DNA of 64,000 bases, taken from positions 4,608,001 through 4,672,000 of the forward strand of contig CAVYRF010000002.1 of NCBI GenBank assembly GCA_963770895.1. The letters run 5' to 3'. Position 1 is the first letter of the stretch, and the number at the start of each line of letters is the position of its first letter. The notes beneath the pieces were generated by a model. That model was not told where the DNA came from. It saw only the letters and a list, made by a program, of their open reading frames with translations, and did not search any database. Source of the DNA: an uncultured Acidobacteriota bacterium. GTDB lineage: Bacteria; Acidobacteriota; Thermoanaerobaculia; Multivoradales; UBA5704. The translations under genes and the position numbers were made by a program. Shown here piece after piece: positions 12,595 to 34,670 of the stretch.

Positions 12595-13059
12595 GTGACA
12601 AGACGTGCACGCACCCCTGGGGCCGCGTGCATAAGTGTTCGTGTCCGCTTACGAGGACGGAAGTCGAGTCCGCAGGGTTACCCGGAGGCACCCCGGACCA
12701 TTGGCGAGCATCTCCGGCGGGCGCGCCTTGACCGCGGCCTCGGCCAGAGACACGCGGCCCGCGAGATCGGCTGCTCGCAGGCGAGCCTCGCGAGTTGGGA
12801 GGCGGGGCGGGGCGCGCCGGGGCTGCGCTTCCTGCCCGGCATCCTGGCCTTCCTCGGGTACGACCCGCGGCCGGAGCCCGAAACCTTCGGCGGGCGGGTA
12901 AGGGCCGCGCGGGAGGGGAAGGGACTCTCCGCGGCAGCACTGGCCCGCCGGTTCGGTCTCGACCCATCGACCGTCTCTGCCTGGGAGCGCGACGAGATCA
13001 AACGGCCATGCCCCCGCATCCGGCGGGTCTTCGAGCGCTGGCTCGGAGGCGAGCCCTAG
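12595..13059 (+). CDS. Tandem double XRE-family helix-turn-helix domain spanning attL
   Basis: Two HTH_3-like units (IGEHLRRARLDRGLGQRHAAREIGCSQASLASWE; FGGRVRAAREGKGLSAAALARRFGLDPSTVSAWE). The track's GTG start at 12595 lies outside the element, left of the att core. Confidence 0.75.
   Translation: MTRRARTPGAACISVRVRLRGRKSSPQGYPEAPRTIGEHLRRARLDRGLGQRHAAREIGCSQASLASWEAGRGAPGLRFLPGILAFLGYDPRPEPETFGGRVRAAREGKGLSAAALARRFGLDPSTVSAWERDEIKRPCPRIRRVFERWLGGEP
12607..12641. other. attL site
   Basis: B arm gcacgcac, core with central TG (12618-12619), P' arm tgcataagtgttcg. Confidence 0.8.
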
Positions 13060-13247
13060 TCCTCCATCCCCAAGATTCGCCGGAGCCCTTCCCGGAGGAT
13101 CTCCGCCTCCGTGCGGCGCTCGGCGTAGGCCCTTTCCCGGAGCGCTTCGGCCTCGTCCGGGTGAAGCCAGACATTCTTGCGGATCATGCCCGTCTTCGAG
13201 ACCGTGGTTTCGCCGCCGCGCGGTCCGAGGCGCTTCTTCTCGTTCAT
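13056..13247 (-). CDS. Small ribbon-helix-helix (CopG-like) DNA-binding protein
   Basis: MNEKKRLG...RKNVWLHPDEAEALRERAYAERRTEAEILREGLRR shows a beta strand plus two helices. Its stop overlaps the HTH stop in the palindrome CTAG (13056-13059). Confidence 0.7.
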   Translation of the reverse strand: MNEKKRLGPRGGETTVSKTGMIRKNVWLHPDEAEALRERAYAERRTEAEILREGLRRILGMED

Positions 13248-13464
13248 CCCCAGAACATAGTGAAGCCCCACAAACCCATCGGCGCCGGCTTTCCGAGCTG
13301 CCCCTAGAGTTCCCGCGCGCGAGACGCAGGAATCCTCGCCCACCTGTTCAGGCTCGATCCGCCGCCGCAGTGCCTCGGGAGCGCGGCGCGATCCGGCGCT
13401 TCCATCGGTGCACCTGTTAGGGGTTCCGGGTGCTGCCTCGCCTCGCTCTGGTAGCCCCGCCCCG

Positions 13465-13650
13465 TTATTCCTCGTCGAGGCGACTGGTGTTTGCGGGCGA
13501 ACCTCTGACGGTCAGTAGGGTTGACGGTCTCGCTCCTTCGAGCGCCCGGCAGCCTGGGCAGATTCCGAGGTGGTGCGCCACCCGTTCCACCTCAGCGACT
13601 CTCGCCCCGGCCGTGCGCAGAAGTTCCGCCTCGGAGAGATGCGCTGTCAT
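13465..13650 (-). pseudogene. Truncated N-terminal fragment of an HxxxCxxC/TPR family gene
   Basis: MTAHLSEAELLR...EVERVAHHLGICPGCRA aligns by eye with PHVSKKDLLR...EVARLAAHLAGCAACRS of the 27640 protein, then similarity is lost. Confidence 0.6.
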
Positions 13651-13799
13651 TCTTTCTCGCTCTTAAATGCGAATGCCCGCCACGACATTTTAGGCTACCT
13701 CCAAGTACGAGTCACTGTAGATTGCCGAAGTTACGGAGAGGCTGCTTCGCACTTCGAGATGAAAGGCCGCGGGCCGTCCGTACCTACTAAAAATTTGGA

Positions 13800-13829
13800 T
13801 TGACGCAGCTGCGCTGATACCGGTAGGCT
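13800..13829 (+). promoter_or_regulatory. Candidate sigma70 promoter for the surface-protein operon
   Basis: TTGACG (13800-13805), 18-nt spacer, TAGGCT (13824-13829), with an A/T-rich UP-like tract upstream. Confidence 0.35.
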
Positions 13830-13960
13830 GTATTCAGTTTAGAGCTTCAGACGCCGGAATTAGCAAACGCGCGGGCGTGGCGCTTGACCGCTGCCGAGAA
13901 CGTACTTGGCGGCCAGCGCCAGATCGTCCGAGGTTTCTCACTGACTTGCCGGAGGTGGTA

Positions 13961-16900
13961 ATGCGGCACGTGGTTCGAGCGCCTGTGCGGTTCCGAATCG
14001 GTATATCGGGTGCGGCCCGAGCCGGCAGGAGGCTCGTTTTCGCAGCATGCTCCCTCGCAGCTCTGGCCACCACCGCGCTGGCCGCCCAGACCGTGACGCT
14101 TCAGGCGAGCGCCGACACCACTCTTAAGCAGGGCAGTCCTAACAAGAGCTTTGGCGGTGAGACGACCCTGACCATCAAGGAAGGCGGCAGCCGCGTGCTC
14201 CTCCGGTTCGACGGAGCCGCCATCGCTGCGACGGTGGGCAGCGACAGCCTGGCCTCGGCAGCACTTCAAGTCTACGTGGGCGCCAATGCAGCGAATTGGG
14301 GCGCCACGGGCCGCACCGTGGACATCTATCAGCTTACCTCAGCGTGGACGGAGGCTGGAGCGACCTGGAACTGCGCCGCCGATCCGAACCCTGGGCATGC
14401 CGGCGCCGGCTGCACGAGTCCCTGGTCCGGTGGCACCCCCGCACAGGGCGCCAACGGCGCGAGCGGCGACGGCGAGCCGACCGACACGGCGCTCATCACG
14501 AACGGCACAAGCGGCTGGGTGACGTTCGACGTGACCTCGGATGTCGCGGCGTTTCTCACCGGCACGCCGAATAACGGATGGCTTCTCCAGAAGACGGACG
14601 AGGGCCAGGCGGGTCGGATCGATCTGGTCTCGCGGGAAGGAACGGCGGGCCTCGCTCCGCGGCTCATCCTCGTGAGCCAAAGCGCCACCTCCGATGCGGT
14701 GCCGCCGTCACTCGCCATTGTTTCGCCGTCAGAGCCGGTCTTGGTGAACGTGCCCGCACCGGCGGTCGGCCTCGCCTATCAGGACCCCGGCTCGGGCGTC
14801 GACACCTCGACACTTCGAGTCGCAATCGACGGTCAGGATTTCAGCTCGGGATGCAGCATCGGAGCGCAGGCGGCGAGTTGTCAGGCGCCTGTGCTGGCTG
14901 CCGGCGCGCACACCATTACGGCGAGCCTGAAAGATCACGCGGGCAACCTCGCCACGGCCACGAGTAGCTTCCAGCTGCTCCTCGGTCCCGGCATCTCGAC
15001 CCTCACCTTCCCGGTGAGCACCGACACCTTCATCACCGCCAAGAGCCCCGACCGTGAGCACGGGCGCGCCGCCGTGCTGCGGGTCGAAAAGAGCGGCCCG
15101 AGCCGGGCGCTGGTCGGGTTCGACCCCGGAAGCCTCGCGGCCGCGGTGGCCGGGAACCAGGTGCTGGCGGCCCAGCTTCAGCTCGGCGTCGCCGCGAATG
15201 CCAAGAATTGGGGAAGTGCCGGGCGCACCATCGGCGCCTACCGGCTGACCACGGCCTGGTCCGAGGCGGCGGCCACCTGGGACTGCCCGGCCGATACCAA
15301 CTTGGACAATGCCACACCCGACTGCGCGGCACCGTGGAACGGCGGCTCGTTCGTGGCCGCGCCAACGGCAACGGCGCTCATCACGCGGCAGACGACAGGG
15401 AGCGTGAGCTTCGATGTGACCACCGATGTGACCGCCTTTCTCGCCGGCACCGCGAACGACGGATGGCTGATCGGGAAGACCGACGAAGGGCTCGCCGGGC
15501 GGATCGATTTCACCTCGCGCGAGGCGAGCTCCGGCCAAGCGGCGCAGCTCATCGTTCAGGTCCAGGTCCCGGCGCCGCTGCCAACGGTTGCAATCACCTC
15601 GCCGCTCGACGGCTCCTACTCGCGCACGGCGAACGTCCAGGTCACCGGGCAGGCGGGCGGCTCCGCGACCAGCGTGTCGGTGAACGGCCAGGTGGCAACG
15701 CTCGGTCAGGGCGGCACCTTTACCACGCAAGTCACCTTGATCCCAGGTGCGAACTCGATCGTCGCAGTCGCCTCCGACGCTGCCGGAAACCAGGCGACGG
15801 CCACGGTCAGCGTCATTCTCGACACCACGCCTCCGGCCGTGACGCTGACCTCGCCGCTGCCCGGAGCCATCACGAACCAGCCGCAGGTCGTGGTCTCCGG
15901 CACTGCGCTCGACGACAACGGCGTCGCCTCCCTCACGGTTGCCGGCCAGGCGGTTGCGCTCTCGGGCAGTCAGTTCTCAACCACGGTCCAGCTGGCTGCG
16001 GGATCGAACCCGATCACGGTCACCGCCACCGACTTGGCGGGCAACACAGAGACCGTCTCGGTCACCGTGACGCAGTTCAGCGTGCCGGTCGTCTCGATCA
16101 CGGCGCCGGCCGACCTGAGCTATGTGAACGCCACGACGGTTACCGTGAGCGGCACCGCCACCGGCGCCACGAGCCTCAGCGTGAACGGCGTGGCCGCGGT
16201 GCTCTCGGCCTCTGGCTTTACCGCCACCGGCGTGCCGCTCATCGAGGGCGGCAATACGCTGACCGCCACGGCTACCGACGGTCAGGGCCACGTGGGGATC
16301 GCAAGCATCAACGTAGTGCGCGACCTGACGCCGCCGCATGTCGCGATCTATACCCCGGCCGCCGGCGCCGCGATCACCGGCTCGTCGGTCACCGTGTCGG
16401 GCCTCGTGAACGACATCGTGGCCGGCACGGTGAACACGAGCAATGCGACGGTGACCGTGAACGGCATTCCGGCGACGGTCGCCAACCGCTCCTTTATAGT
16501 CCCCAATGTGCCGCTGCAACCGGGCAGCAATATCCTGACGGCCGTGGCGGTCGATGCCGCCGGCAACCAGGCACAGGCAACGGTCACGGTGCGCCAGATG
16601 ACCCCGGCCGGTGCGCGCATCGCGGTGGCGGCCGGCAACGGCCAGAGCGCGCCGATGGCGACGCCGTTGCCGCAGCCCCTGGTGGCCGTGCTGCTCGACG
16701 TTTCCGGGCAGCCGGTCGTGGGCCGGCAGGTGCTCTTTCAGGCCGTTGGCACCGACGGTACCTTCGACAACGGGCGGCGCACCTATGCCGTGACGAGCGA
16801 TGTTTCGGGCCAGGCCACGGTGCACTTTACGGTGGGAAGCCATGCCGGCGCTGGCAACCAGATGGTGAAGGCGTCGGCGCCCGGCTTCAGCGGGCCGGCG

Positions 16901-18565
16901 CAGTTCGTGGCCAGCGCGCAGCCGGGAACCCCGGCGCTCCTCGTGGTCGATTCGGGTGACCAGCAGCAGGGCGTCGCTGGCCAGGCCCTGCCGCTGCCCC
17001 TCGTGGCAGTCGTGGTCGATGCCGGCGGCAACCGTCTGGCCGGCGTCGCGGTGACGCTCAAGGTGGCGAAGGGGGCCGGCACCTTCACGAACGGCCAGCC
17101 GACGCTCTCCTTGGCATCCGATACCGACGGCCGGCTCATTGCCTCGTTCATCACCGATCCCGCGGAGGGAGTGGCCAATAACGTCGTGGAAGCGACGATT
17201 GACGCTCTGCCCGCCGGGCCGGTGGTGAGCTTCACCGCCTCCGCGCTCGCAGCCTACGACCCGGCGCTCACCGCGATCAGCGGCGTCGTGCTCGACAACA
17301 GCAACCAGCCGGTGCCGGGAGCCACCCTCCGCATCCTCGGCACGGCGCTCACTACCGAGAGCGACCCGCAGGGCCTCTTCCAGCTCACAGCAGTACCCGC
17401 CGGCACGCTCCAACTCGTCGTGGACGGCACGACCGTCCAGCGTCCCGGCTCCTGGCCACAGCTGGAGTTCAACCTGACCCCCGTACCCGGCCGTAACAAC
17501 TCTCTCCGCATGCCCGTCTACCTGCTACCGCTGAACCTCGAAAACGGCATCGTCGTGGACGAGACGCACGGCGGCACGCTGACGCTGCCGGAGTTGCCGG
17601 GCTTCGCCCTCACTGTCCAGCCGGGATCGGTCACCTATCCCGGCGGGGGCAGGAGCGGCACCGTGAGCGTGACCGTGGTGCACAGCGACAAGGTGCCGAT
17701 GGTGCCGAACTTCGGCCAACAGCCGCGCCTCATCGTCACCATTCAGCCGGCGGGAGCGCAGTTCAATCCGCCCGCGACGATCAGCATGCCGAACGTCGAG
17801 GGATTACCGGCCGGCAAGATCACCGAGTTCTACTCCTTCGACCACGACCTCGGCCACTTCGTGAGCATCGGCCCCGGCACCGTGAGCGACGATGGCACGG
17901 TCATTACCTCGAACGCGGGGGTCGGCATCGTCAAAGCCGGATGGCACTGCGATGGCTCCCCGCAGGCTGCCGGCTCGCCGAATGCCTGTCCAACCTGCAC
18001 GCAATGCACAGGTAGCCAGTGCGCTCCCCAACCGCTCTGCCAGGCTTGTGGATCTAATGGTTCGCAGATGGCTTGCGACGGACAGGGGAGCTGCGATACC
18101 GGGCTTCAGTTGCTTCCTCAGATTTGCAGCCAGGTCAGCATGATCTCGTCTCAGCAGCAAAGCGTCCCCTGTAGCGCATATACAGGCGCCGTACCAGGAT
18201 CAACTTGTGGCGCTGGCATACAGATTCTCTATCAAACCCTCAAGGTGGCAAACTGCAATGGCGTAGATCTCGCCGGAGCAACTGTTCACGAAATTGTCAC
18301 AAGCGACCAAGGCTGCACTCGCCAAAAGCTAAATACAGGCTCGTGCACCGTCTCGGCGGGCAACCACATTGGCCAACCTGGGCATGATTGCCAGGACAAT
18401 TACTTCCTTTGCACTCCGCCCGGCGGATTCACGAGAACGGGGAGTTGCACGCAACACTACACCCAACAGATTTACGTTGGACCGTGTCTCGTGGAGACGC
18501 ATCTGATCACCATCCACTTCGAGGCTAGCCCTACCGGTTGCAGTGCTACGGCAACGAGGAATTGA
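13961..18565 (+). CDS. Giant secreted protein: two DNRLRE-like domains, Ig-like repeats, carboxypeptidase-regulatory-like domain, Cys-rich variable C-terminus
   Basis: RBS GGAGGT before ATG 13961; signal peptide; two repeats of DT...R.L..FD...W.E..ATW.C...FDVT.DV.AFL.G..N.GWL..KTDE...SRE; many D.AGN/DTTPP Ig repeats; about 20 Cys after KAGWH. Confidence 0.85.
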   Translation: MRHVVRAPVRFRIGISGAARAGRRLVFAACSLAALATTALAAQTVTLQASADTTLKQGSPNKSFGGETTLTIKEGGSRVLLRFDGAAIAATVGSDSLASAALQVYVGANAANWGATGRTVDIYQLTSAWTEAGATWNCAADPNPGHAGAGCTSPWSGGTPAQGANGASGDGEPTDTALITNGTSGWVTFDVTSDVAAFLTGTPNNGWLLQKTDEGQAGRIDLVSREGTAGLAPRLILVSQSATSDAVPPSLAIVSPSEPVLVNVPAPAVGLAYQDPGSGVDTSTLRVAIDGQDFSSGCSIGAQAASCQAPVLAAGAHTITASLKDHAGNLATATSSFQLLLGPGISTLTFPVSTDTFITAKSPDREHGRAAVLRVEKSGPSRALVGFDPGSLAAAVAGNQVLAAQLQLGVAANAKNWGSAGRTIGAYRLTTAWSEAAATWDCPADTNLDNATPDCAAPWNGGSFVAAPTATALITRQTTGSVSFDVTTDVTAFLAGTANDGWLIGKTDEGLAGRIDFTSREASSGQAAQLIVQVQVPAPLPTVAITSPLDGSYSRTANVQVTGQAGGSATSVSVNGQVATLGQGGTFTTQVTLIPGANSIVAVASDAAGNQATATVSVILDTTPPAVTLTSPLPGAITNQPQVVVSGTALDDNGVASLTVAGQAVALSGSQFSTTVQLAAGSNPITVTATDLAGNTETVSVTVTQFSVPVVSITAPADLSYVNATTVTVSGTATGATSLSVNGVAAVLSASGFTATGVPLIEGGNTLTATATDGQGHVGIASINVVRDLTPPHVAIYTPAAGAAITGSSVTVSGLVNDIVAGTVNTSNATVTVNGIPATVANRSFIVPNVPLQPGSNILTAVAVDAAGNQAQATVTVRQMTPAGARIAVAAGNGQSAPMATPLPQPLVAVLLDVSGQPVVGRQVLFQAVGTDGTFDNGRRTYAVTSDVSGQATVHFTVGSHAGAGNQMVKASAPGFSGPAQFVASAQPGTPALLVVDSGDQQQGVAGQALPLPLVAVVVDAGGNRLAGVAVTLKVAKGAGTFTNGQPTLSLASDTDGRLIASFITDPAEGVANNVVEATIDALPAGPVVSFTASALAAYDPALTAISGVVLDNSNQPVPGATLRILGTALTTESDPQGLFQLTAVPAGTLQLVVDGTTVQRPGSWPQLEFNLTPVPGRNNSLRMPVYLLPLNLENGIVVDETHGGTLTLPELPGFALTVQPGSVTYPGGGRSGTVSVTVVHSDKVPMVPNFGQQPRLIVTIQPAGAQFNPPATISMPNVEGLPAGKITEFYSFDHDLGHFVSIGPGTVSDDGTVITSNAGVGIVKAGWHCDGSPQAAGSPNACPTCTQCTGSQCAPQPLCQACGSNGSQMACDGQGSCDTGLQLLPQICSQVSMISSQQQSVPCSAYTGAVPGSTCGAGIQILYQTLKVANCNGVDLAGATVHEIVTSDQGCTRQKLNTGSCTVSAGNHIGQPGHDCQDNYFLCTPPGGFTRTGSCTQHYTQQIYVGPCLVETHLITIHFEASPTGCSATATRN

Positions 18566-18568
18566 GCT

Positions 18569-19567
18569 ATGTGCACTTTGCGAGTCGGCTGCCTATTCGT
18601 GCTTGTGCTACTGCTTCATCTGGATGAGGCGGCAGCGATGCATGAGGTACCAAGTCCACCAGCAGGCCAACCCACGAACTGCAATTGGGTGGCGCTCTCT
18701 GCCGACAACCTTCTTGGTCAGCGCCTTGGCACGATCGAGCTTCGCGACGGCGATCTGACCGCGGTATTCGAGCATATCCTTAGCGATCGCGGTGTGCCAG
18801 TGTCCTATATCGAGGCTGAGGATCACCCGCCTATCACACTACGGCTGACAAACCCAACTGTGCGGGAGCTCTTGGACGCTCTGATCTCACAATCGCCAAC
18901 GTACCGCTATGGATTCCTCCATCAGCATCTCGTCTTCTACCCTCGGGTGCCCCCCTACGAATCGCTGCTGGCAGGCATGGTCTTGCCTGCGCTACCGCGC
19001 TTAAGCGCTTCATATCGCATGGTCAAAGAGTTAAAAAAACGGTACAGTGAATTTGCAAAATTGCAGCCGCCGATTTTGGTCGGCGATCCGCAAGATTTTC
19101 TTTTCACTGACGGCGTCATCGTTACCAAGCCCACCAGCGTACTAGACGGTTTGGTACAACTGCTGGGTAATCGGCCATCAGCTTGTTTCAGCGTGACGCA
19201 TAAGAGGTGGACCGGGCTAAGCGTCTCTGAGGGGCTCAGTTATTTGGATCTCTTTTATGTGAGAGTGCTGGAGAAGGTGGAGGTTAAGCCGATCCTGACC
19301 TTGGTTCGCGCAGGAGACGTTATTCCTCTCTCGGTTCGGGCAACGTTTGTCGCCGGTGGCGAGCAGGATGTAACCTCTGCATCTTGTGGGACGACATACT
19401 ACGCTGCCTATCCAGAACGGACCGCGGTTGACGAGAAGGGCGTGATGCGGGCGCTCGCTCCTGGGAATGCGGTTATTGTCGTGAGAAACGAGATGGAGAC
19501 AATTAGCCTGCCATTCACCGTAGTGGCGGGAACGACGGCGACCGCACCGCACCCAGGGACTAAATGA
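18569..19567 (+). CDS. Secreted hypothetical protein with an STN-like region and a C-terminal Big_2 Ig-like domain
   Basis: Starts 3 nt after the upstream stop; signal peptide; PITLRLTNPTVRELLDALI; LSVRATF..G...DVT....GTTY.....VDEKG.MRAL..G; low GC. Confidence 0.7.
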   Translation: MCTLRVGCLFVLVLLLHLDEAAAMHEVPSPPAGQPTNCNWVALSADNLLGQRLGTIELRDGDLTAVFEHILSDRGVPVSYIEAEDHPPITLRLTNPTVRELLDALISQSPTYRYGFLHQHLVFYPRVPPYESLLAGMVLPALPRLSASYRMVKELKKRYSEFAKLQPPILVGDPQDFLFTDGVIVTKPTSVLDGLVQLLGNRPSACFSVTHKRWTGLSVSEGLSYLDLFYVRVLEKVEVKPILTLVRAGDVIPLSVRATFVAGGEQDVTSASCGTTYYAAYPERTAVDEKGVMRALAPGNAVIVVRNEMETISLPFTVVAGTTATAPHPGTK

Positions 19568-19593
19568 AAGCCTTACGGCTATAGCGTGAGCCT

Positions 19594-22500
19594 ATGAACC
19601 TTGCTCTCGATCGTACTCCGATGACTTCCCTCGCGCCGAACCATCGGCGCGCATTCTTCCTGCCCTTGCTGATCCATTTGCTCACGGCCGCGACATCCTT
19701 TGCCCAACTCGACCAAACCTGCACGGTAAGCGCCCTGAACCGGACGGCACAGGTGGATGCCAACGGCGTGTGGGTACTCACAAACGTGCCGGCAGGGACT
19801 GGCCAAGTGCGAGTGCGCGCAGCGTGCATGGCAAACGGCACGACCCGGTATGGGCAGTCGGACCTCTTCACGGTGCCGGTGAACGGCGCCATTCTGGTGA
19901 GCGATATTTCCTTCGCGAGCCAGGTACCGATTCCGTCGAGCCTGACGCTCACGGGACCGGGCTCGCCGCTGTCAGGTGCCGGCCAGCAGGCGCAGCTTTC
20001 GGCCATTGCGACCTACCCTGGCGGCACGACGGGTGACCTCACGCCCGGCAGCACGGGCACCGGGTACGTGTCGAGCAACCCGGCGGTGGTGAGCGTGGAT
20101 GCGAATGGAGCGGTGACGGCCATCGCCAGCGGCACGGTGGTGATCAGCGCATTGAACGAGGGTGTGCTTGGCGTGGTGCAGGTACAGGTGGTGCTTTCCG
20201 GCAGCACGGTGGGCGACGGCATCCCGGACGATTGGAAAGTGGCGCACGGACTCGATCCCAACGATCCATACTGCGCGTTGGAAGATCCCGACAACGACGG
20301 ACTGACTAACCTGGAGGAGTACCAGAACGGCACCGATCCGAACAACCCCGACACCGACGGCGACGGTCTGTCGGACGGCGACGAGGTGCACCTCTACCAT
20401 ACGAACCCGCTCCTATGGGACACGGATGGGGACGGGATCTCGGACGGGGTCGAGGTGAGGACGGGCAGCGATCCGCTCAACATCCACAGTTTCAACCTGG
20501 CGGCGGCGCTCTCTTCGATCACGGTCTCTCCGGGCGCGTTCACCTTGGTCTTCAACACGGTGAGCGGCCAGGCGTCGCGGCAGCTCGTGGCGACGGGCAA
20601 CGTCATCGACGGCCGCACCATCGATCTCTTTAATCCGCTCTACCAAACCCAGGTCGCATCGAGCAACCTCGCGGTCGCGAGCTTCGGAGTGCAACCGGGC
20701 CAGGTGTTCGCCGGGCAGAGCGGCACGGCGACGGTTACGGTGAGCAACAGCGGCTGGTCGGCGGCGTCCGCCGTGACGGTGACGACGTTCTCGCCCACGG
20801 CCCTGGCGTTCCTGCCGCTTCCCGGATTTCAGAATGCGGTGGAGGTGGCAGGCGACTTCGTATTCGTGGCCTCCGGTGGCTTCGGGCTTTCGGTCGTGGA
20901 TGTGACGAACCTGCAAGCGCCGGTCTTGATCGCTCAGGCGCCCACTCCGGGCAGTGCGAACGATGTGCGGGTCTCGGGCACCGTGGCGTATGTGGCCGAG
21001 GATGTCGGCCTGCAACTCATGGACGTGAGCGATCCGGCCCACCCGGCGCGGCTCGGCAGCCTGAACCTCCCCGATGGCGACCAGGTGCGCCTGGCGGTAG
21101 CCGGCAACCTGGTCTATCTCGCCGACATGAACTTCGGCCTGCACGTCGTGGATGTGACGAACCCCATGCAGCCGGTCGAGGTCGGCTCGCTCGCGCTCGG
21201 GGGCACGCCGCGGGCGGTCGGTCTCGGCGGCACCGGGCTCGGCGGGTTCGCTCTCAGCGGATCGTATGCGGTGGTCGCCTGCGGCGACGGGGGCGTGGCG
21301 GTGGTGGACGTGAGCGATCCGACGGCGCCGGCCCTCGTGGGCGCTACGCCGGAGGATGCCCCGCGCGCCGGCAGCGTAACGGTGCGCGGCCACTACGCCT
21401 ACGTTGCCGCCGGAGAGGAGGCGGTCTACGGCGGCCTGCACGTCGTGGAGCTTGCCGACCCGACGAACCCCGTCGAGGTGGGGGCGAGTGAGGATGACCT
21501 GGGGGTGACCCGTGCGGCGCTCCAAGACGGGTTTGCCCTGGGCGCGCAGTTCTTCCTGGCCGCGCAGGTGGCGATCTTCGATGTCAGCGCCGTTCCTCCG
21601 GTCTACACGGCGGTGCTCGACCTCTCGACCTTGCCCGGCGGCGAGGTGGTCGTCGCGCCGCGCGCCAATGACATCGCGGTGCGAAACGGCGCGGTCTTCC
21701 TGGCGGCCAACGGCCAGCAGCTGGGTGAGTTTGCGAGCTACGCGATCGAGCAGGGCGGCCTCTACACCGGCCTTTTCGAGCTGCCGAACGACGGCGACAC
21801 GACTCCGCCGACGGTGAGCCTCTCCTCGCCGGCGGCCGGGTCCTCGGTGATGGAGCGGCTGCCCGTGACGGTGACCGTGGCGGCGCAGGATGAGGTCTCG
21901 GTCACTTCGGTCGGCATCCTGGTCGACGGTGCTCTGGTCGAAACCCTATACAAGCCGCCGTACCAGGCGACTATTCACGTGCCGTCCGGTCAGCCGACCA
22001 TGACGCTCGGAGCGGTGGCGACGAACATCAGCGGCGTCCAGGCGACGGCCACGGAGACGCTCACCGTCCAGCCGTACCCCTTGCCGGTCGCCACCCTCCT
22101 CGCGCCCGCGCCCGGCCAGGTTCTGATCGACGGCACGCCGCTCACGATCGCGGTTGCGGCGAGCGACGCCGTGGCGGTCACTCGGGTCGAGGTCTATGTG
22201 AACGGCGCGCTCGTCGGCACGGCCTTGACGCCGCCGTACCTCTTTCAGGTCACGCTGCCGCGCGGCTCGGCGACGCTCGCGGTGACGGCGCTCGCATACA
22301 ACGCGCTGGGGCCGGGCGCGATGTCGGCGCCGGTCGCGGTGACGGTAGAGCCGGACGTGCCGCCCACGGTTGCGATCTTCTCGCCGGCCGACGGCGCGCA
22401 GGTGACCGAGGGAAGCGTGGTCTCGATCGTTGCAGGCGCAAGCGACCTGACCGGAATCGCGAGCGTGCTCTTCGAGCTTGACGGCGTCGAGTTCCAGGGC

Positions 22501-25244: not shown

Positions 25245-25311
25245 GAAGGTCCTGGCGCGGCAGCGCGCAAGGGTGTTGGAGGCAGCGGGGGTGGCCGGGC
25301 CTCGATGCGCC

Positions 25312-26706: not shown

Positions 26707-27278
26707 GGGTCGCGTCGGGCGCTGAGGCGTGGTCGCGGGGCTATCTCTCGGAAGTAGGTGTCGCGGTCGAGGCCATAGACGAGCATCTCCCGGCCGGCGT
26801 GATTGATGCCGCCTTCGAGCTGCTCGCCGATCCGCTCGACCACCCGAATCGAGGCGTGATTCGCCGGGTCCACGAGGCTGATGATGTGGTCCTTCCGTAG
26901 CACGTTGAAGGCAAACGCCATCGCCGCCCGCGCGCCCTCGCTCGCATAGCCCTTGCCCCAATGGCATCGCGCGAGATGCCCGCCCAACTCGAAGCCGGGC
27001 CAGGTCTCGGGCTCTGCAAAGCCGATCATGCCCGCGAAGCTGCCGCTTGCCGTCTCCTCCACGACCCACATGCCGGCTCCACCAAGCCACCAGTGCCCAT
27101 GGACGAAGGCCATGTGCCGCCATGCCCGGCCCCGGTCCCAGGTTTCGCCGTTCTGACCGATGAACCGGGTCACTTCCGGGTCGGCATACAGGGCAGCGTA
27201 GTCCTCGTAGTCGCTTCCGCGAAGCCCTCTGAGCCGCAGGCGCGCGGTCGTGAGGGTAGGTATCTCGGGTATGCCCAT
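26703..27278 (-). CDS. GNAT N-acetyltransferase (RimJ/RimL family)
   Basis: LTTARLRLR, ELGGHL...WGKGYASEGA, N.ASIRVVERIG; RBS GGAGG. Confidence 0.92.
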   Translation of the reverse strand: MGIPEIPTLTTARLRLRGLRGSDYEDYAALYADPEVTRFIGQNGETWDRGRAWRHMAFVHGHWWLGGAGMWVVEETASGSFAGMIGFAEPETWPGFELGGHLARCHWGKGYASEGARAAMAFAFNVLRKDHIISLVDPANHASIRVVERIGEQLEGGINHAGREMLVYGLDRDTYFREIAPRPRLSARRDP

Positions 27279-27515: not shown

Positions 27516-27524
27516 GGAGAGCCC

Positions 27525-27558
27525 CGGAAGGGGAGGTCTGTCGGCGCCTCCCCTTCCG
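27525..27558 (+). terminator. Hairpin (terminator or RNA stabiliser) after the small peptide
   Basis: cggaaggggagg / cctccccttccg, perfect 12-bp stem with a 10-nt loop; only a short T run follows. Confidence 0.6.
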
Positions 27559-27639
27559 TTCCCCCCAATGTACAGAGGCTCTTATTTTGAGTTACTCTAA
27601 AACCGCTGTTGGCCTAATTTGTTTTGGGAGAGAGGGAAC

Positions 27640-30081
27640 GTGCCGCACGTCTCGAAGAAAGATCTGCTGCGTGCAAGCGACGCCGGCCGGTCCGAGGTCG
27701 CACGGCTCGCCGCGCATCTGGCCGGATGCGCTGCGTGCCGGTCCCGCGCCTTGAGCCTTTTGCGGGACCGGGCGCTGCCCGCGAAGCGCCAAGTGCCCCT
27801 GCGGACCCTCCTTGAACTCGCCGCCTTCGAGGAGAGGGAGGCAGTCGAGCGGCTCCGCGTGCGGGCGGAGTTTGCGGCACTCCGCCGCCTTACGCGCGCC
27901 GCCCAAAAAGAGCGCCTTATTCTCTCCCGGCTATGTCACTCGCTCGCCTTCGTTGATGTGCTTCTTGCCGCGGTGCGCGCTCCGCACCCGCGGGAGGAAG
28001 CCGAGTTCCTTTCGGGCCTCGCGGTCCTTGCCGTACAGGGCATGAAGCACATCTCGGAGGCGTTTCGAAACGATCTCCTCTCGTCCATCTGGACAGAGAC
28101 CGCGAACAACCGCCGCGTGAACGGCGAGTGGAGCAACGCGCAGGTGGCCCTTGCGCGCGGCAAGACCAATCTTGACCGCGGGACCGGGAATCCCTCGATC
28201 CTGGCGCGATGGCTTTCTGTCGGCGCATCACTGCGCGCCGACCAAGGCGCGCGCGACGATGCCATGGCCCAACTTGACGAGTGCCGGCGAATCTGCGAGG
28301 CAGAACCCAATTGGCCGCTCGTGGCCCGCACCATGGTGCAGATGGCACACGTCATCGTGGATCGCGACCCGGACGCGAGTCTCGCTTTGCTCGACCGGGC
28401 TGGTGTCTACCTACCTCTGGAGGACGCGACGCTCCGATGGCTCGCGGAGAGTATCCGGGCGGAGAGCCTCATTATCCTTGGCCGCATCGAGGATGCCTTG
28501 GTTGTCTTCGACCGTGCCGAACGATTGCGTCCATTGCAGCAGCGGCGAAACGGCAAGCTCCGCTCCGTTTGGACCGCAGCCCGTCTCCTTGAGGCGCTCG
28601 GCTGCATGCGGGAGGCGGAAGGGCTCTTCGATGAAACTCTTGCAGGCGACCTTCACGAGGGGCTCCACAAGGATGCGCTTCTCGACATGGCCTATATCGT
28701 CGGCTTTCACGCCCGCTCCGGCAGACCGGAGCGGGCGGAAGAGATCGGCCTCCAGACCCTCGCCGAGATCGAGGAGCAAGGCACGGTGCTTCACGACCAG
28801 CTCCGGCGTGTACTCCGGGGATTTATCGATGCCGCGCGAGGACAAACGCTTGACCAGAACGTGCTCCGAGAGGTAGACGAATACCTCCGCGCGCATTGGA
28901 AGTACCCAGCGGCGGTCGATCCCGTCATTCCCACCGGAGAGAAGGTGCCCGTCTCTCCGGCTCCCGCCGCTGCTCTGGTAGACAAAGCACTCGTGGTGCC
29001 GCTCCTCATGCGGGCGCTCTGGTCCCGCATCCGCCGCGGAACGAGAAGAGTACAGCAGGCGCAGGTCGGTGCCTCGCCCGAGTGCCATACGAAAGAGTTT
29101 CTGGACCTGCTCTTGGGCGAGCTGGCTGCCACTGAGTCGCGGGACGAGGCGGAGTTCATCGCGCACCTGGCGCTCCGGGCCGTGGAGGAATCGGCCGAGC
29201 CGGCCGAGGCAAGAGAAGACTTCAGGGCACAGGTCTGGACCGAAATCGCGAACGTCCGCCGAATCGCCGCCGAGTGGAATCACGCGGAGACCGCACTTCA
29301 CCGAGCGCATGAGCACCTCGGCCGGGGTGCCGGGAGCCCGCTCCTCAAGGCGCGCGCGCAATCGGTTGCAGCATCCCTTCTCTTCGACCAGGGACGACGC
29401 GCACAAGCTGTTGCTGCCCTGGAAGAGTGCCTGAAGCTCTATGAAGATGCGAAGGCATGGCCTTTGGTTGCCCGCACTCTGGTCCAAACGGCGCACGCGC
29501 TCGTTGAGAACGCTCCCGAGTGCGCGCTCTCGGTCGCCGAAAAGGCGCTTCCATTCATACCGGCAGAGGATTCGGTGCTTCGGTGGCTTACCGAGAGTAT
29601 CCGTACCGAAAGCCTCATCGAGATGGGCGAAACCGGCCAGGCGCTTCAGGCGTTCCATCTCGCGGAGTCTTTGCGCGGCGGCCACGCGCGGCCGGACGCG
29701 GATCTCCGCAGCAACTACACCGCGGCCCGCCTGCTCGAAGCCCTCGGACGTTTCGACGAGGCGGAGCAACTTTTCGAGGCGGTGATTGCGGAAGCGTTCG
29801 ACCGGGAGGCGTACCGGGCGGCCTTCCTCGACACGCTCTATCTGTTTGGGCTTCACATTCGCCGGGAGGCCAGAGACAAGGCAGTCGCGCTTTGCCGCGC
29901 CGCGATCGCCCGGCTTGATGTCCCAGATGTGGGCCATGAGCAGCTTCGCGCCGTATGGATGGAACTGATGGACGCGGCCATGCTGCGAGCCATACGTCTT
30001 GAAGGGCTCGCCGAGGTGCGAGAGTTCCTCAAGGTGTACTGGAAATATCCTGCCTCGAAGCCTCCCAGGTTTTCCTTCTGA
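27640..30081 (+). CDS. Internally duplicated TPR-like protein with an N-terminal HxxxCxxC motif
   Basis: GTG 27640 with a GAGGG RBS; AHLAGCAAC; two homologous halves (WTE.AN.RR...EW, WPLVART.VQ.AH, LRWL.ESIR.ESLI, TAARLLEALG, WKYPA). Confidence 0.85.
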   Translation: MPHVSKKDLLRASDAGRSEVARLAAHLAGCAACRSRALSLLRDRALPAKRQVPLRTLLELAAFEEREAVERLRVRAEFAALRRLTRAAQKERLILSRLCHSLAFVDVLLAAVRAPHPREEAEFLSGLAVLAVQGMKHISEAFRNDLLSSIWTETANNRRVNGEWSNAQVALARGKTNLDRGTGNPSILARWLSVGASLRADQGARDDAMAQLDECRRICEAEPNWPLVARTMVQMAHVIVDRDPDASLALLDRAGVYLPLEDATLRWLAESIRAESLIILGRIEDALVVFDRAERLRPLQQRRNGKLRSVWTAARLLEALGCMREAEGLFDETLAGDLHEGLHKDALLDMAYIVGFHARSGRPERAEEIGLQTLAEIEEQGTVLHDQLRRVLRGFIDAARGQTLDQNVLREVDEYLRAHWKYPAAVDPVIPTGEKVPVSPAPAAALVDKALVVPLLMRALWSRIRRGTRRVQQAQVGASPECHTKEFLDLLLGELAATESRDEAEFIAHLALRAVEESAEPAEAREDFRAQVWTEIANVRRIAAEWNHAETALHRAHEHLGRGAGSPLLKARAQSVAASLLFDQGRRAQAVAALEECLKLYEDAKAWPLVARTLVQTAHALVENAPECALSVAEKALPFIPAEDSVLRWLTESIRTESLIEMGETGQALQAFHLAESLRGGHARPDADLRSNYTAARLLEALGRFDEAEQLFEAVIAEAFDREAYRAAFLDTLYLFGLHIRREARDKAVALCRAAIARLDVPDVGHEQLRAVWMELMDAAMLRAIRLEGLAEVREFLKVYWKYPASKPPRFSF

Positions 30082-30165
30082 CACCCACCATCGCAGCTCT
30101 GTATGAAAAGACCCCAAGCGCCTGGCTTGGGGTTGAAACATTGATCGAAGAGAAGAGAGCATCAG

Positions 30166-30525
30166 CTAAGCGGCCTTGAGGAGCCGCGACACTCGCCGCT
30201 CCAGAGTAACCCGTTCGTCGGCGTGCGGGATGGCGCGGGCAAGGGCGGTGCCGCCCTGGACAAGCTGCCAGAGGGTGCGGGCGCCGCCCTCCTCGCTCTT
30301 CGCGAGCTCGATTACCCGCTCGCCTTCCCGCTTCGTGAAGTCGTGGGACCTGAGCCACCCGAGGACTTCCTCGTCCGAGCCCGCGACCTTCTTCCGCGCC
30401 GCTCGCGCAAGCTGCTCCTTTGCGTCCACCACCGAGGACTCCGTGTAGGCCGAGAGCCGAGGCAGGGCCTCGCGGATGAAGCGCTCGGGGGCGTTCCTGG
30501 TGTGCCGGATCTCGATCTCCTTTAC
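30166..30525 (-). pseudogene. C-terminal fragment of a DUF932-like mobile-element protein, truncated by the IS
   Basis: Frame VKEIEIRHTRNAPERFIREALPRL...RTLWQLVQGGTALARAIPHADERVTLERRVSRLL stays open right up to the IS end, with no start. Family call is from recall. Confidence 0.65.
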
Positions 30526-30589
30526 TGTATAGCTCGGAGATCTTGGGACTCGGGATAATGTAGGCCGAGAAGGCCTGAGGAGACCGGAG

Positions 30590-30898
30590 ATGCCCAGGAA
30601 GAGCGACCGTAAGCCGGAAGAGCGGGTGGAGGTGGTACTGGCGTTGTTGAGGCGCGAGGAGTCAGCGGCGGCGCTGGCGCGGCGGTACCAGGTCAGCGAG
30701 GCGACGATCTACCGCTGGCGGGACCAGTTCGTGGCGGCGGGCACGGCGGGCGTGGCAAAGCCAGACGGCGCCGGCGACCAGGCGTCAGCGCGCCGGATCG
30801 AGCAGCTCGAGCGGGAAGTGGACAAGCGCTCGCAGATCATCGGTGAGTTGTCGATCGCCAACGGCATTTTAAAAAAACTTCAAACTCGTTTGTCGTGA
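30590..30898 (+). CDS. IS3 transposase OrfA (HTH + leucine zipper)
   Basis: SAAALARRYQVSEATIYRWRDQF HTH; coiled-coil C-terminus; slippery TTTTAAAAAAAC at 30867-30878. Confidence 0.9.
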   Translation: MPRKSDRKPEERVEVVLALLRREESAAALARRYQVSEATIYRWRDQFVAAGTAGVAKPDGAGDQASARRIEQLEREVDKRSQIIGELSIANGILKKLQTRLS

Positions 30899-31887
30899 CC
30901 GAAGAGCTCAGAGTCATGATCCGCGATGCGGTTAAGGTTCAGGCGAAAGCGCGGCTCAAGGCCGTCGTTCGCGCTTTGGGGTTGCCTTGTTCGAGCTTCT
31001 TTCGGCGGCCTGTCGCGTCGTCTCGTCGTCGCCCAGGACCAGCACCGCGTCCGCTCGATCCAGAACGTAGCTCGGTCGTCCGGAGCTTCGCTCTGCTGTA
31101 TCCCTGGTGGGGTTACAAGCGGCTGGCCGTGGTGCTGAGACGTGCCGGCGAGGCGGTCACGAATCGCTTTGTCTACCGGGTTCTGAAGGCTGCGGACCTA
31201 CTCATCCGCAAGCGCAGCCGAAACGCCGAGCTCTACCAGGCGGCCCGGCTCTTCGAGTTGTTGCCGCAAGGCCCGAACGAGTTGTGGCAGGCCGACGTGA
31301 CGTACATTCACATCCCAGGGCACGGCTGGTGGTACGCGGTCACAGTCATCGACTACTACAGTCGCTACTTGCTGGCAATGCACCTGTCGGCAAGCTTCGA
31401 CGCCTCGGCGCTGATCGTCGGCATTGATCGGGCCATCGCGGAAGCTGAGCGTCTTCACGGCCCTCTGCGGCGACGACCGACACTGGTCACTGACAACGGC
31501 ACGAGCTTCTTGTCGCGGCGCTTCCGAGGGCACATCGCCACGAGCCTGGATCACATGCGGACGCGCAACCGCACTCCCGAGCAGCTCGGACTGCTCGAGC
31601 GCTTCCACAGAACTCTCAAGGCCGAAGAGGTGCACTGGCAGCTCTACAGCTCGCCCCAGGAAGCAAGGGAGAAGCTTGAGGCCTTCCGCCAGAGGTACAA
31701 CGAGATCAGGCCGCACTGGGCTCTGGTGCCGCCTTCGTGCGTCGATCCCATCACGCCTGCCGAGGTCTACCGTGACGCCAAAGTCGTCCAATTACCGGCG
31801 TGGCAAGGTTGGGCCAGGGCTGCCAAGGAAAAGCTTGAAAAGCTCCAGGTAGGGCAACTACTGCAAGCGGAGGCGATCCCGGCCTGA
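30895..31887 (+). CDS. IS3 transposase OrfB (rve DDE catalytic domain)
   Basis: WGYKRL, NELWQADVTYI, VIDYYSRY, TDNGTSF, ERFHRTLKAE, YNEIRPH. The frame is open back to the slippery site. Confidence 0.92.
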   Translation: MTEELRVMIRDAVKVQAKARLKAVVRALGLPCSSFFRRPVASSRRRPGPAPRPLDPERSSVVRSFALLYPWWGYKRLAVVLRRAGEAVTNRFVYRVLKAADLLIRKRSRNAELYQAARLFELLPQGPNELWQADVTYIHIPGHGWWYAVTVIDYYSRYLLAMHLSASFDASALIVGIDRAIAEAERLHGPLRRRPTLVTDNGTSFLSRRFRGHIATSLDHMRTRNRTPEQLGLLERFHRTLKAEEVHWQLYSSPQEAREKLEAFRQRYNEIRPHWALVPPSCVDPITPAEVYRDAKVVQLPAWQGWARAAKEKLEKLQVGQLLQAEAIPA

Positions 31888-31951
31888 CGGCCGGGTCCAA
31901 GCTCACACATAAATCGACCACTCGGGTCCACTTGATCTGCGAGCCAAGACA

Positions 31952-34360
31952 CAACTCCGGGCCTTCTTCCCCGAGGTCTCGATCGCGGCTGAGCCGGAGG
32001 GGCTGCGACAGGTATGGAAGAAGAACGAGAGCGAGACCATCCTTGTCCACTTCGGCCTGGCGCGCGAGTTCATGCTGCCCCTCGCTTCTTTCCGGTCCCT
32101 CGACCCCGATCCGCTCCTGCCGCTTTTCGGGGCGCTCGCCGAGCTTGAAGCCGGCGAAGCCGGCCTCGTGCAAGTCCTCTTTGAGCGAGTCCGCGAGCGG
32201 TGGGCCGAAAGCGTCATGCGCGCCGTCGTGACCGGGGGCGGCGAACCCTTCTTCGCCGACTATCCAGAACTCACGAAGGCTGCGCGGGAGAAAGTCTCCC
32301 GGCCCCTGTACGCCGTCTGCCTGCGGATAGCAGCGAAGAGCAGCGATGCGACCGGCGCTTGGCGGATCGTGCGCGATCTTGCCGGAGCAGTGACCCATTT
32401 CGGCGCTCCTGGCGGCAACGAGCTTCTCCCGCTCGCCTCCGAGGAGGGTGCCGACGCAACCGAGCAAATCTTCGAGAGGGTGAGCCGCCGGCCGGGCATG
32501 ATCGTAGGAAGCGATGAGCTGGCGGCCCTCGCGCACCTCCCGAGCGCCTCAGTGCGGGTGCCGAAATTCCTCCGGGAGATACGGCGCTCGAAAGCGGCGC
32601 CCGCTCTCTCCCAAGGCGCGGGGATTCTTCTTGGCGAGAACCTTCATCACGGCAAGACCCTTGCCGTGCGGCTGCCCAATGATCTCCGTCTCCGGCATCT
32701 CCATGTGATCGGCGCCTCGGGCTCCGGCAAGTCCACTCTTCTCATCGATCTCATCATGCAGGACATCGAAGAGGGCCGGGGCGTCGGCGTCCTCGACCCT
32801 CACGGCGATCTCGTGGATGAGATCGCAGGCCGCATCCAGAAGGCGCGACTTCAGGACGCCATCCTCTTCGACCCGGCGGACACTGCCTACCCGGTTGCCT
32901 GGAACATCCTCGAAGCGCACAGCGAGCTTGAGCGCACCCTCTTGTCCTCGGATCTCGTCGGCATCTTCCGCCGCTTCTCGACCTCCTGGGGCGACCAGAT
33001 GACCAGCGTTCTCGGGAACGCGGTCCTCGTGCTCCTGGAGAATCCCGGCTCGACCCTGCTTGACCTGCGCGAGTTCCTCGTGGATCGGCAGACCCGCGAG
33101 CGCTTGCTTGCCGCGGTCGATGATCCATACCTCCTCTCGTACTTCCGACACGAGTTCGCTCTCGCGGCCGGGAAGAGCGTGGGTGCGATCCTCACCCGGC
33201 TTGATGGCTTCCTGCGCAGCAAGACCGTGCGGCAGATCGTGGGCGCCAGGGAGAGCCGACTCAACCTGCGCACCGTCGTAGATCAAGGGCAGATTTTCCT
33301 GGCCCGGCTCTCCGAGGGCGCGATCGGCGAAGAGAACGCTGGGCTCTTGGGCTCCCTCCTCGTCTCCAAGTTCCACCAGATCACGATGAGCCGGCAGGAG
33401 GTGAAGCGGGAGGAACGCCGTGCCTTCTTCCTCTACGCCGCCGAATGCCAGGAGTTCGCAACGGCTTCCATGGCGCTCCTCCTTTCGGGAGCGAGGAAGT
33501 ACGGCCTGGGGCTCGTCCTCGCCCACCAAGACCTGCGCCAACTCGAAGCGAAGGCCCCGGAGGTTGCCTCCGCTCTCCTCGGAAACGCCGGTACGCGCAT
33601 CGCCTTCCGCGTCGGCGACCGGGATGCGAAGGCGCTCTCTGAGGGCCTATCCTTCTTCGGACCCGGTGACCTCATGAGTCTCAGGGTAGGGGAAGCCATC
33701 GCCCGGATCGACAACGCTCAAGGCGACTGCAACCTGAAGACGCAGCTTTTGCCGGCGGTGGCACCCGAGACGGCCGCCGAGCGGCGCGAGGCAATCACCG
33801 CCCTCTCGCGGGAGCGTTATGCCGTGCGGCGTGAAGAGCGGCCAAGAGCGGCCGAGCCCGCGGCAGAGGTAGCACGGCCGGCAGCTCCACGAGCGGAGAG
33901 GACGCCACCGCCGATCCCGATCCCACCAGCACCCGCCCCGCCGCAGCCGGCACCGGCCCGCGAGCGAACTCCGCCCATCGCTCCGGCGCCCCTCGGTCGT
34001 GGCGGACCGGAGCACCAGTACCTCCAAGAACTCGTAAAGCGGTGGGGAGAGGCCAAGGGCTATCGGGCGACGGTGGAAGAGCCCCTGCCCTCCGGCGGCC
34101 GGGTGGATGTGGCCCTGCGGCGAGAGGGACATTCCCTGGCCTGCGAGATCTCGGTCTCGACAGGGGCGGAGCACGAAACCGGGAACGTGAAAAAGTGCCT
34201 CCATGCTGGATTTGACGAGGTGATCCTTCTCTCCCTCAGTCGAGGTACACTCGGGAAGGTGCGGGGTGCGGTATATGCGGGATTGCCGGAGCAGGACCGG
34301 AGCCGCCTCCACTTCATGAGCCCGGAGGAGTTCTTCACCTTCCTCGATGCGCCGGCGCCG
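31952..34360 (+). pseudogene. 5'-truncated type IV coupling protein/TraD-HerA-like ATPase with a C-terminal PD-(D/E)xK-like domain
   Basis: Frame is open from the IS end (QLRAFFPE...HFGLAREFMLPL); Walker A GASGSGKST; LDPHGDL; Walker B reads FLYAAE instead of ..DE; ARKYGLGLVLAHQ; C-terminal VDVAL...ACEIS. Confidence 0.8.
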
Positions 34361-34666
34361 GCGGCGCGGCGCGAGGAGCTCGAAGCCGAGATCCCCCGGC
34401 TCCAAGGCGAGATCGACTTCCTCAAAATCCAGCATCTCTCCCAGGAAGAGGTCGTCACCGGAGCCCACGACCTCTACGAGCGCTGGGACGACCTATCCCA
34501 GGAAGACCGCCGCGGCGTCATCCAGGCCATCGTGGAGCGGGTGAGCGTTGGCAAAGACGAGATCGAGATCACCCTTGCCTGCCTTCCGAGGACCGCGGAA
34601 CACCCGCCGCCCCCGCCTCCTCTGAAGATTGCGAACACTTATGCATACAACCCTGGGGCCGCGTGC
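34361..34666 (+). pseudogene. Putative C-terminal remnant of a large serine recombinase, fused in frame to the ATPase remnant
   Basis: Coiled coil RREELEAEIPRLQGEIDFLKIQHLS, then LYERWDDLSQEDRRGVIQAIVERVSVGKDEIEITL, the pattern I recall for large serine recombinase tails; abuts attR. Confidence 0.65.
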
Positions 34667-34670
34667 GCAG
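34632..34670. other. attR site
   Basis: P arm cgaacacttatgca, 8-nt spacer, central TG (34654-34655), remainder of the core, then host sequence. Confidence 0.8.

Follow-up and report, generated by a model that had tools for sequence, protein, structure and literature searches.

What becomes of a recombinase gene when the site at which its element recombines with the chromosome lies inside the reading frame of that very gene? This question is raised by a stretch of 64,000 nucleotides from an uncultured Acidobacteriota bacterium (Thermoanaerobaculia; Multivoradales; UBA5704; GenBank assembly GCA_963770895.1, contig CAVYRF010000002.1, positions 4,608,001 to 4,672,000), hereafter the window, which carries a 22,036-bp integrative element from the LSR (large serine recombinase) family at positions 12619-34654. 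A preliminary description of the window, made from the sequence alone, noted that the core shared by the two ends of this element is translated as PGAAC in the same frame at both ends, and that joining the ends leads the frame of a recombinase remnant, with no stop, into an open reading frame (ORF) with two XRE-type helix-turn-helix (HTH) domains; both observations are borne out by the translations, the core being in the frame of the flanking ORFs. The best explanation of the evidence as a whole, to which we assign a probability of roughly 80%, is the existence of a family of elements in which the integration site is located inside the LSR gene, with this gene fused to an HTH module in the circular state.

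Under the proposed mechanism, elements of the family would be mobilised by an LSR that is encoded at the right end and read outward. In the circle, a single ORF of about 650 aa would comprise the LSR, a Pro/Ser-rich linker, the palindromic attP, a conserved leader and two XRE-type HTH domains, in this order. Integration would cut this ORF at the central dinucleotide, such that no catalytic or DNA-binding domain of the LSR is lost and the LSR frame closes within a few host-encoded codons, and the double HTH comes to lie at the opposite end of the element, 16-65 kb away, without the translation start of the recombinase. The two states would then yield different isoforms of the recombinase, and the HTH module would be made efficiently solely from the circle. 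The sequences themselves show the ORF fused in the form in which attP is intact and split by integration at the central dinucleotide.

Ends of the element and the recombinase remnant

The window contains exactly two copies of a 16-nt direct core, CCCTGGGGCCGCGTGC, at 12615-12630 and 34651-34666, both on the + strand; in shuffled versions of the window, 0.03 matches were found on average, and none of 100 shuffles reached two. A perfect inverted arm of 14 nt, TGCATAAGTGTTCG, occurs at 12628-12641 (+ strand) and 34632-34645 (- strand), with 0.00 occurrences expected. The crossover is placed within the core because the right end of an intact paralog from the same genome (described below) is the same as the window sequence through CCCTGGGG and diverges immediately after. 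The dinucleotide inferred to be exchanged is the central TG (12618-12619 on the left and 34654-34655 on the right), around which the element-side half-sites are complementary at 18 of 24 positions and the host-side half-sites at 13 of 24. The left end accordingly comprises the host-side (B) half of attL (12586-12617, + strand; it includes GAAGG at 12586-12590 as well as the annotated start of the HTH ORF, GTG 12595), the left core copy and the element-side (P') half-site (12620-12643, + strand), which contains the left arm. At the right end, the element-side (P) half-site of attR (34630-34653, + strand) contains the other arm and adjoins the right core with the host-side (B') half-site (34651-34679, + strand). 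A flank resembling the B side of the window, with a GTG preceded by GAAGG, is also found at a related element on contig C1 of the same genome. The combination of an imperfectly palindromic element site and a host site with a short shared core and a non-palindromic central dinucleotide is the structure that LSR elements have at attL and attR. The 9 further genomes of the genus yielded no empty target site; in these genomes, the left flank was matched in one only, on a different contig, and the search was hampered by the multiple copies of the right flanking gene. The boundaries therefore rest on the repeats and on the comparison with the paralog.

The ORF at the left end (12595-13059, + strand; the element part runs from 12620 on) contains two stretches that match the Pfam families HTH_31 and HTH_3, which places it in the XRE/Cro-C1 class, and the profile of the HTH family matches the 434 Cro/repressor, P22 C2, HipB, SinR and the Xre-family regulator of ICEBs1 (7t8i; E 4e-5). 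The GTG at 12595 is the sole ATG, GTG or TTG of this ORF between the upstream stop and the first HTH. It lies to the left of the crossover, and codon reading confirms the earlier remark that this start is outside the element; between the crossover and the first HTH, there is no such codon.

At the right end, a 3' remnant of an LSR gene (34356-34655, + strand; about 100 codons) is in frame with an upstream ATPase ORF and reads into attR. The same genome (G000) encodes an intact LSR paralog of 521 aa with Resolvase and Recombinase domains (G000:C2:5378285-5379850; PF00239 and PF07508; L015:285-1847), and window positions 34356-34666 are 98% identical to the 3' end of this paralog. This match confirms both that 34361-34620 is similar to serine recombinases and that the recombinase is present here only as a remnant, the last ~100 codons being left. 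A Pfam scan of 32072-34738 detected no recombinase domain; such domains are found in the paralog and in the fused protein of metagenome locus L270 (see below), in the latter along with PF13408. Compared with the paralog, the window has lost 1,458 bp (C2:5378055-5379512), a deletion with a short GC-rich microhomology at its junction, by which the ATPase gene is now continuous in frame with the final ~100 codons of the recombinase. The ATPase gene (32072-34365, + strand), which lacks its last ~44 codons, encodes a TrwB/TraD-like protein with the TrwB_AAD_bind and T4SS-DNA_transf domains of type IV coupling proteins (PF10412, E 2.5e-12, and PF02534, both above cut-off; matches to the NCBIfam TraD models are far below their cut-offs) and is 92% identical to C2:5375638-5378054 and 84% identical to C1:119227-121644. 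An ATPase of this type is located directly upstream of the recombinase module in the paralog, in the third copy, on C1, and in the window. Thus, the window element is a decayed, non-autonomous remnant of a member of the LSR family. Because its recombinase is deleted, the switch is dead here and cannot operate at this locus alone; in principle, the paralogous LSR could act in trans on the window ends, which are identical to those that the paralog recognises.

No left end in direct orientation accompanies the recombinase end of the paralog (+ strand); a matching HTH end, 22 kb to the left, is inverted (G000:C2:5357394-5379850; L024 and L015), and the host-side half-sites of this inverted pair are complementary at 16 of 24 positions, as if one palindromic target had been used. 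This layout is what an intramolecular attP x attB inversion would give. Further sites that resemble left ends or attP were observed at C2:3481518, 3487697 and 3492537 (- strand; three within 11 kb), at C1:1999645 and 2002610, and at C2:2707428. At some of these sites, the 'host' arm resembles the recombinase-side arm of another subtype of the family, which suggests that related elements repeatedly inserted into one another's ends and then decayed.

The reading frame across attP

Of 101 related genomes, 33 encode relatives of the double HTH and 27 encode relatives of the LSR. In 13 cases, a single contig carries both, separated by 30-50 kb and oriented alike, the HTH coming before the LSR. Together with the window and the C1 element of G000, these cases make up 15 pairs of ends from Thermoanaerobaculia; additional pairs come from Saprospiraceae (G102, a 64.5-kb element in comM at G102:C20:194297-258790; L159/L188), from a Planctomycetota metagenome-assembled genome (MAG; G106) and from a Bacteroidota MAG (G108). 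For G102, a recombinase at 243 kb of the same contig, C20, was considered as the partner and rejected, its tail being unrelated; the true partner is at 194-196 kb. Overall, the members of the family, which range from 16 to 65 kb, belong to Thermoanaerobaculia, Bacteroidota, Planctomycetota and, by the name that one source gives, Accumulibacter. No relative of the HTH family or of P0161, a distant fused protein (see below), was found among viral contigs.

In 18 of the 18 paired ends, from three phyla, the LSR frame continues through the reconstructed attP into the double-HTH frame without a stop (16 pairs were reproduced by script, and G039 and G106 by hand reading). The conservation of the frame in intact relatives, which the preliminary description had proposed as a check, is therefore found, even where the phase is shifted. 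In all pairs, the element-side half-sites are mutually inverted, and attL and attR share a dinucleotide at equal distance from the arms. For the window, the C1 element and G003_C5, the result is independent of the exact crossover because the two ends share an identity block of 7-16 nt and read it in one frame. With the crossover chosen for G102, the target gene, comM, regains its reading frame, along with the ComM motif MNPCPCG. The att scaffold is homologous throughout, with an A-run at -18 to -15 from the centre mirrored by a T-run. None of the 30 right ends (27 of 27 and 3 of 3) has an LSR stop before the crossover. An open frame is found in the Saprospiraceae too, whose DNA is AT-rich; there, the LSR of the integrated copy meets a stop 4 codons past the crossover.

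The position of the crossover within the codon differs among the elements. In most, it falls between codon positions 3 and 1, with the sequence read GCA AAA GGG; in G003_C5, G002, G090 and G108, between positions 2 and 3 (CAA AAG GGC); and in L061, L083, L030, L033-L035, P0023, P0033 and L270, between positions 1 and 2 (AAA AGG TGC). All three phases occur, and the phases on the LSR side and on the HTH side always match. In representatives of the three types, in the same order, the distance from the LSR motif to the centre is 71, 79 and 78 nt, and that from the centre to the LRGR motif is 29, 27 and 28 nt; each side varies modulo 3, and the totals including the centre (102, 108 and 108 nt) stay multiples of 3. 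Given these matched phase shifts, the agreement of the frames exceeds what inherited geometry provides. The leader between the P' arm and the first HTH (HTH1) differs at the three codon positions by 0.38, 0.42 and 0.63, with a synonymous to non-synonymous ratio of 0.47 versus 0.48 in HTH1, and the codons of the arm itself carry no such coding signature (0.56, 0.47 and 0.57; ratio 0.16). The leader evolves as a coding sequence, so translation must begin in the arm or upstream of it.

A natural fusion of the recombinase with both HTH domains and with attP inside, another expectation of the preliminary description, was detected at one of 80 metagenome loci, L270, and its split products belong to the same 90%-identity cluster. 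In this locus, an ATG-started ORF of 658 aa (941-2917) encodes a complete LSR upstream of the HTH domains, in the order Resolvase, Recombinase, Zn_ribbon, Ser/Pro linker, palindromic attP, HTH_3 and HTH_31; the centre of attP, CA, occupies codon positions 1-2, and the LSR part is 59% identical to the window's paralog. An exact copy of the protein is present in a public collection, where its cluster has 22 members. Among the 15 members listed, there are three 658-aa forms, five forms of 519-534 aa, one of which is named 'recombinase family protein [Accumulibacter sp.]' by its source, and five forms of 131-141 aa. Agreement between the LSR-only forms and the fused form extends to ...AMKL; the following codon, that of the predicted dinucleotide, is where they part, and the 131-141-aa forms correspond to the HTH part. 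At the DNA level, L263 (attL) and L270 (attP) share an identical sequence rightward of the central CA and are unrelated leftward of it.

Less complete junctions were found as well. In L116 and L209, a remnant of the LSR tail is contiguous and in frame with a complete HTH gene, and in P0023, P0033 and L083, complete LSRs read in frame into truncated HTH genes. Distant LSRs fused to arrays of HTH pairs (P0161, P0122 and P0133) account for 3 of the 20 long profile matches scanned; the remaining 17 contain no recombinase domain, and the top of the list is dominated by multi-HTH repeat proteins. The junction of P0033, used as a protein query, matched itself alone. Frames of 661 and 848 aa in G001:C189 and G002:C88, considered as fusions, were discarded as spurious GC-rich frames antisense to other genes. 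In L116, the place of the recombinase body is occupied by a 549-aa ORF (484-2133, - strand), a transposase to judge by eye, and of the recombinase gene about the last 50 codons are left.

Several observations weigh against a fused gene that is split by integration. The L270 contig may represent a circular molecule, a tandem array or a copy that resides stably in the chromosome. For the subtype of the window's element, the searches yielded no full-length fusion; an HTH domain is present in 0 of 34 relatives of the recombinase tail, a recombinase in 0 of 5 longer HTH relatives (in a word-based protein search), and a complete LSR upstream of the HTH in 0 of 74 genome loci and in the single one of 80 metagenome loci already described. 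The relatives share ancestry, so the 18 pairs cannot be counted as separate trials, and only the two or three phase shifts represent independent events. Where nothing but the dinucleotide is common to attL and attR, the conserved geometry served to place the crossover, and G056 and G102 each have an out-of-frame crossover candidate of equal palindrome score, rejected by geometry for G056 and by the restoration of comM for G102. When palindrome score alone was used, spurious sites were obtained for G033, G039, G056 and G015a; the score is insufficient because candidates that pair the same arm bases are inseparable by it, and conserved geometry, equal dinucleotides and, for G102, comM restoration were used instead. 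The contiguous junction in G003:C4, beside a truncated recombinase, carries a 1-nt frameshift in the linker. Finally, a TTG, GTG or ATG is present within the P' arm in 20 of 33 left ends, although not in those of the window's type, and a TTG just before a PFC/HSC motif recurs across phyla and serves as the start of the split HTH proteins in gene calls; independent translation of the HTH protein from the integrated copy is therefore possible as well.

These start-type codons are central to an alternative that we consider unlikely, namely, that two separate genes abut attP, with the HTH protein made from its own TTG, GTG or ATG in both states, the fusion being a by-product without a role and the recombinase reading through merely for lack of selection for a stop. 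The TTG before the PFC/HSC motif recurs in loci from Saprospiraceae, Ignavibacteria, Sumerlaeota and Phycisphaerae, P0002 and the 139-141-aa members of the cluster are called from such codons, and open frames are cheap in GC-rich DNA, in which spurious frames of 600 aa were met. However, chance alone would supply roughly one start-type codon in every 25 codons, which puts 20 of 33 near the chance level, and the recurrent TTG belongs to the palindrome or, in Saprospiraceae, to the comM-derived core. No ATG, GTG or TTG occurs from the crossover to the leader in 13 of the 33 left ends, including those of the window's subtype, and in 7 there is none since the upstream stop. Thus, the internal start of the HTH gene that the preliminary description had raised as a counter-indication has candidates in many P' arms and is absent from the window's type. 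Two separate genes are also at odds with the lack of an own stop in all 30 recombinase genes, with the matching of every frame shift on one side of attP by a shift on the other, and with the open frame of the AT-rich Saprospiraceae, where the stop so soon after the crossover belongs to the integrated state.

Less probable still is the possibility that the ORF across attP is the HTH gene alone, with its true start in the recombinase tail, in which case integration would remove the start along with the promoter and the regulator would be switched off in the manner of integration-dependent immunity; the fused recombinase part would have no relevance. An ATG or GTG is indeed often found just before the P arm (...EIMAKGP, EIVAKGP, KMTAFGQ, KMMTND), and in G003:C4, the HTH ORF is opened by a P-side ATG. 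This codon is, however, part of the outer palindrome and is missing in the window's paralog (AAG ATT GCG) as well as in the types with the crossover between codon positions 2 and 3 or 1 and 2; furthermore, neither the maintenance of the frame of the recombinase body through variable linkers nor the constant lack of a stop would be explained. The idea that the interval is not mobile and owes its repeats at 12615 and 34651 to chance, for which one might invoke the failure to find an empty site in the genus and an interior consisting largely of cargo with paralogs elsewhere on the chromosome, can be dismissed, given that the core and arms are far beyond chance expectation, that the same arms border the intact paralog and two more HTH copies, that the ATPase-recombinase module and the HTH gene occupy opposite ends in 13 other same-contig pairs, and that, in a relative, the sequences of attP and attL part precisely at the centre.

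If the LSR gene is fused to the HTH module in the circle and split by integration, the fusion supplies an extra module and not a missing part of the enzyme, because the integrated LSR keeps all known domains. Directionality, autoregulation and accessory DNA binding are possible roles of this module. Most likely, it would act in cis with the integrase, while integration proceeds or shortly afterwards, as an accessory DNA-binding domain or an ImmR-like regulatory domain, a role that is inseparable here from one in directionality. A more specific proposal, which we put forward tentatively and at somewhat less than even odds, is an isoform switch encoded in the topology of the DNA: the integrase made from the circle would carry a double-HTH domain that biases it toward integration or shuts the element down, and integration would both remove and silence this domain. 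Directionality or regulation would then be set by the side of the reaction on which the DNA is, and not solely by a separate recombination directionality factor (RDF). An arrangement of this kind would be ancient, being common to elements from three or more phyla, with compensating frame shifts to preserve it.

Insertion targets and gene content

In the Saprospiraceae loci (L142-L175), the elements are inserted in comM, within the codons of the conserved NPCPCG motif and antisense to the gene, and in many genomes, the HTH frame is open for about 53 codons through the antisense strand of comM. A tRNA target, suggested by the conserved upstream frame, was rejected, with a tRNA at 0 of 12 loci; the target is comM. 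In G101, a full-length comM is located 24.5 kb from a displaced C-terminal fragment of comM, and no gene for a Recombinase domain was found in this genome.

In the window, the host genes outside the element are, on the left, a gene with matches to Pfam AlbA_2, HATPase_c_4 and TPR (10490-12478, + strand) and, on the right, a gene for a PQQ-like beta-propeller protein with a signal peptide (34739-36613, + strand), which belongs to the family that is multi-copy in the genus. Positions 32072-36613 form a single open frame of 1,513 aa that leads from the ATPase through the recombinase remnant and attR into the PQQ-like gene with no stop; the final stretch of this frame, into the PQQ-like gene, is a coincidental agreement in GC-rich DNA.

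Within the element, the HTH ORF is followed by a small convergent ORF without a family match (13056-13343, - strand), and the adjoining DNA at 13283-13398 is conserved beside the HTH gene of copy 2. The cargo includes a large surface protein with CBM96, Glucodextranase_B-type Ig and CarboxypepD_reg domains (13877-18565, + strand), an ORF without a family match (18569-19567, + strand), a surface protein with LVIVD-repeat, Big_7 and TSP3 matches (19594-23637, + strand) and a PAP2-like protein (23406-25244, + strand; a weak match, with the true start uncertain). Paralogous clusters of the cargo region 13757-25274, 77-92% identical to it, are located at C2:1888028, C2:3599726 and C2:3864757, none of them seen to be flanked by element ends. 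Further to the right are, on the - strand, a GNAT acetyltransferase gene (26703-27278) followed by a TPR protein gene (25312 to about 26709, the start inferred by eye) and, on the + strand, another TPR protein gene (27619-30081). Both TPR proteins have an N-terminal H-x3-C-x2-C motif, resembling that of zinc-binding anti-sigma factors, and one of them follows the GNAT gene with overlapping stop and start. An IS3-type transposase pair (30590-31887, + strand; HTH orfA at 30590-30898 and rve orfB at 30895-31887), with a related copy at C2:3302784, precedes the ATPase gene.

Known switches and implications

Several known systems have a recombination site within a gene. In the Mx8 IntP/IntX system, attP is within the integrase coding sequence, and integration gives the gene a new 3' end and the protein an altered C-terminus (PMC6070905); the enzyme is a tyrosine recombinase whose own C-terminal segment is replaced, whereas in the elements described here a separate double-HTH module is detached by a serine recombinase. 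The 'suicidal' integrases of the SSV type, from archaeal viruses and plasmids, likewise have the site inside the integrase ORF, and integration splits the gene (PMC7253208). These are tyrosine enzymes inactivated by the split, in contrast to the present family, in which the integrated recombinase keeps the Resolvase, Recombinase and zinc-ribbon/coiled-coil parts. In the mycobacteriophages BPs, Halo and Brujita, attP is inside the gene of an HTH regulator, and integration changes the form of the regulator (PMC7194413). There, a tyrosine integrase acts and the repressor loses its 3' end and a degradation tag; here, the HTH ORF loses its 5' end, which in the circle is supplied by the serine recombinase gene. 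An engineered fusion of the phiC31 integrase with its RDF demonstrates that a C-terminal partner can alter the directionality of a serine integrase (PMC5737554; PMC6511857). That fusion is man-made and is neither made nor broken by recombination, and it joins the integrase to a known RDF, not to an XRE double HTH. With the crossover within a translated ORF and a recombinase of the serine family, the present elements work like the switches with attP inside a gene and are not members of those tyrosine systems.

In L270, the fused recombinase-HTH gene is directly preceded by a gene for an M78 (ImmA/IrrE-like) peptidase (315-869) and followed, within 2950-4974, by an ORF without a Pfam match and a 339-aa ORF that is a DNA methyltransferase by eye only. 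The encoding of an XRE-type regulator along with an M78 peptidase and an integrase is a likeness to ImmR/ImmA of ICEBs1 and suggests, by analogy, that the HTH module may be an ImmR-like regulator; ImmR is a separate single-HTH protein, unlike the fused double HTH of this family. No M78 peptidase was found in the elements of the window's genome, where the three PF06114 matches are all outside elements of the family, so that the ImmR/ImmA arrangement is not reproduced there. In the LSR element of TnpX (Tn4451 and Tn4453), the joint of the circle forms a promoter that changes the expression of the recombinase; that switch is transcriptional and leaves the TnpX protein unchanged, unlike the one proposed here. 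In full-text searches of the literature, excepting supplementary files, which could hold one, we found no report of an LSR ORF that spans attP or is split from an HTH by integration. An LSR gene split by its own integration is a real and, as it appears, previously undescribed trait of this family.

For genome annotation, these findings mean that the genes of integrated recombinases end in arbitrary tails encoded by the host and that the start-less HTH ORFs at the other end of the elements are gene halves rather than pseudogenes or mis-calls. Large serine integrases are standard tools for one-way insertion of DNA, and the control of their direction, under active study, is known to be exerted by separate directionality factors. 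The present elements, by contrast, appear to alter the integrase protein itself at every integration or excision, through a crossover situated within its gene. If the double-HTH domain alters the activity or regulation of the recombinase, these elements would represent a new natural coupling of recombinase function to the state of the DNA and a ready-made design for self-limiting integrases.

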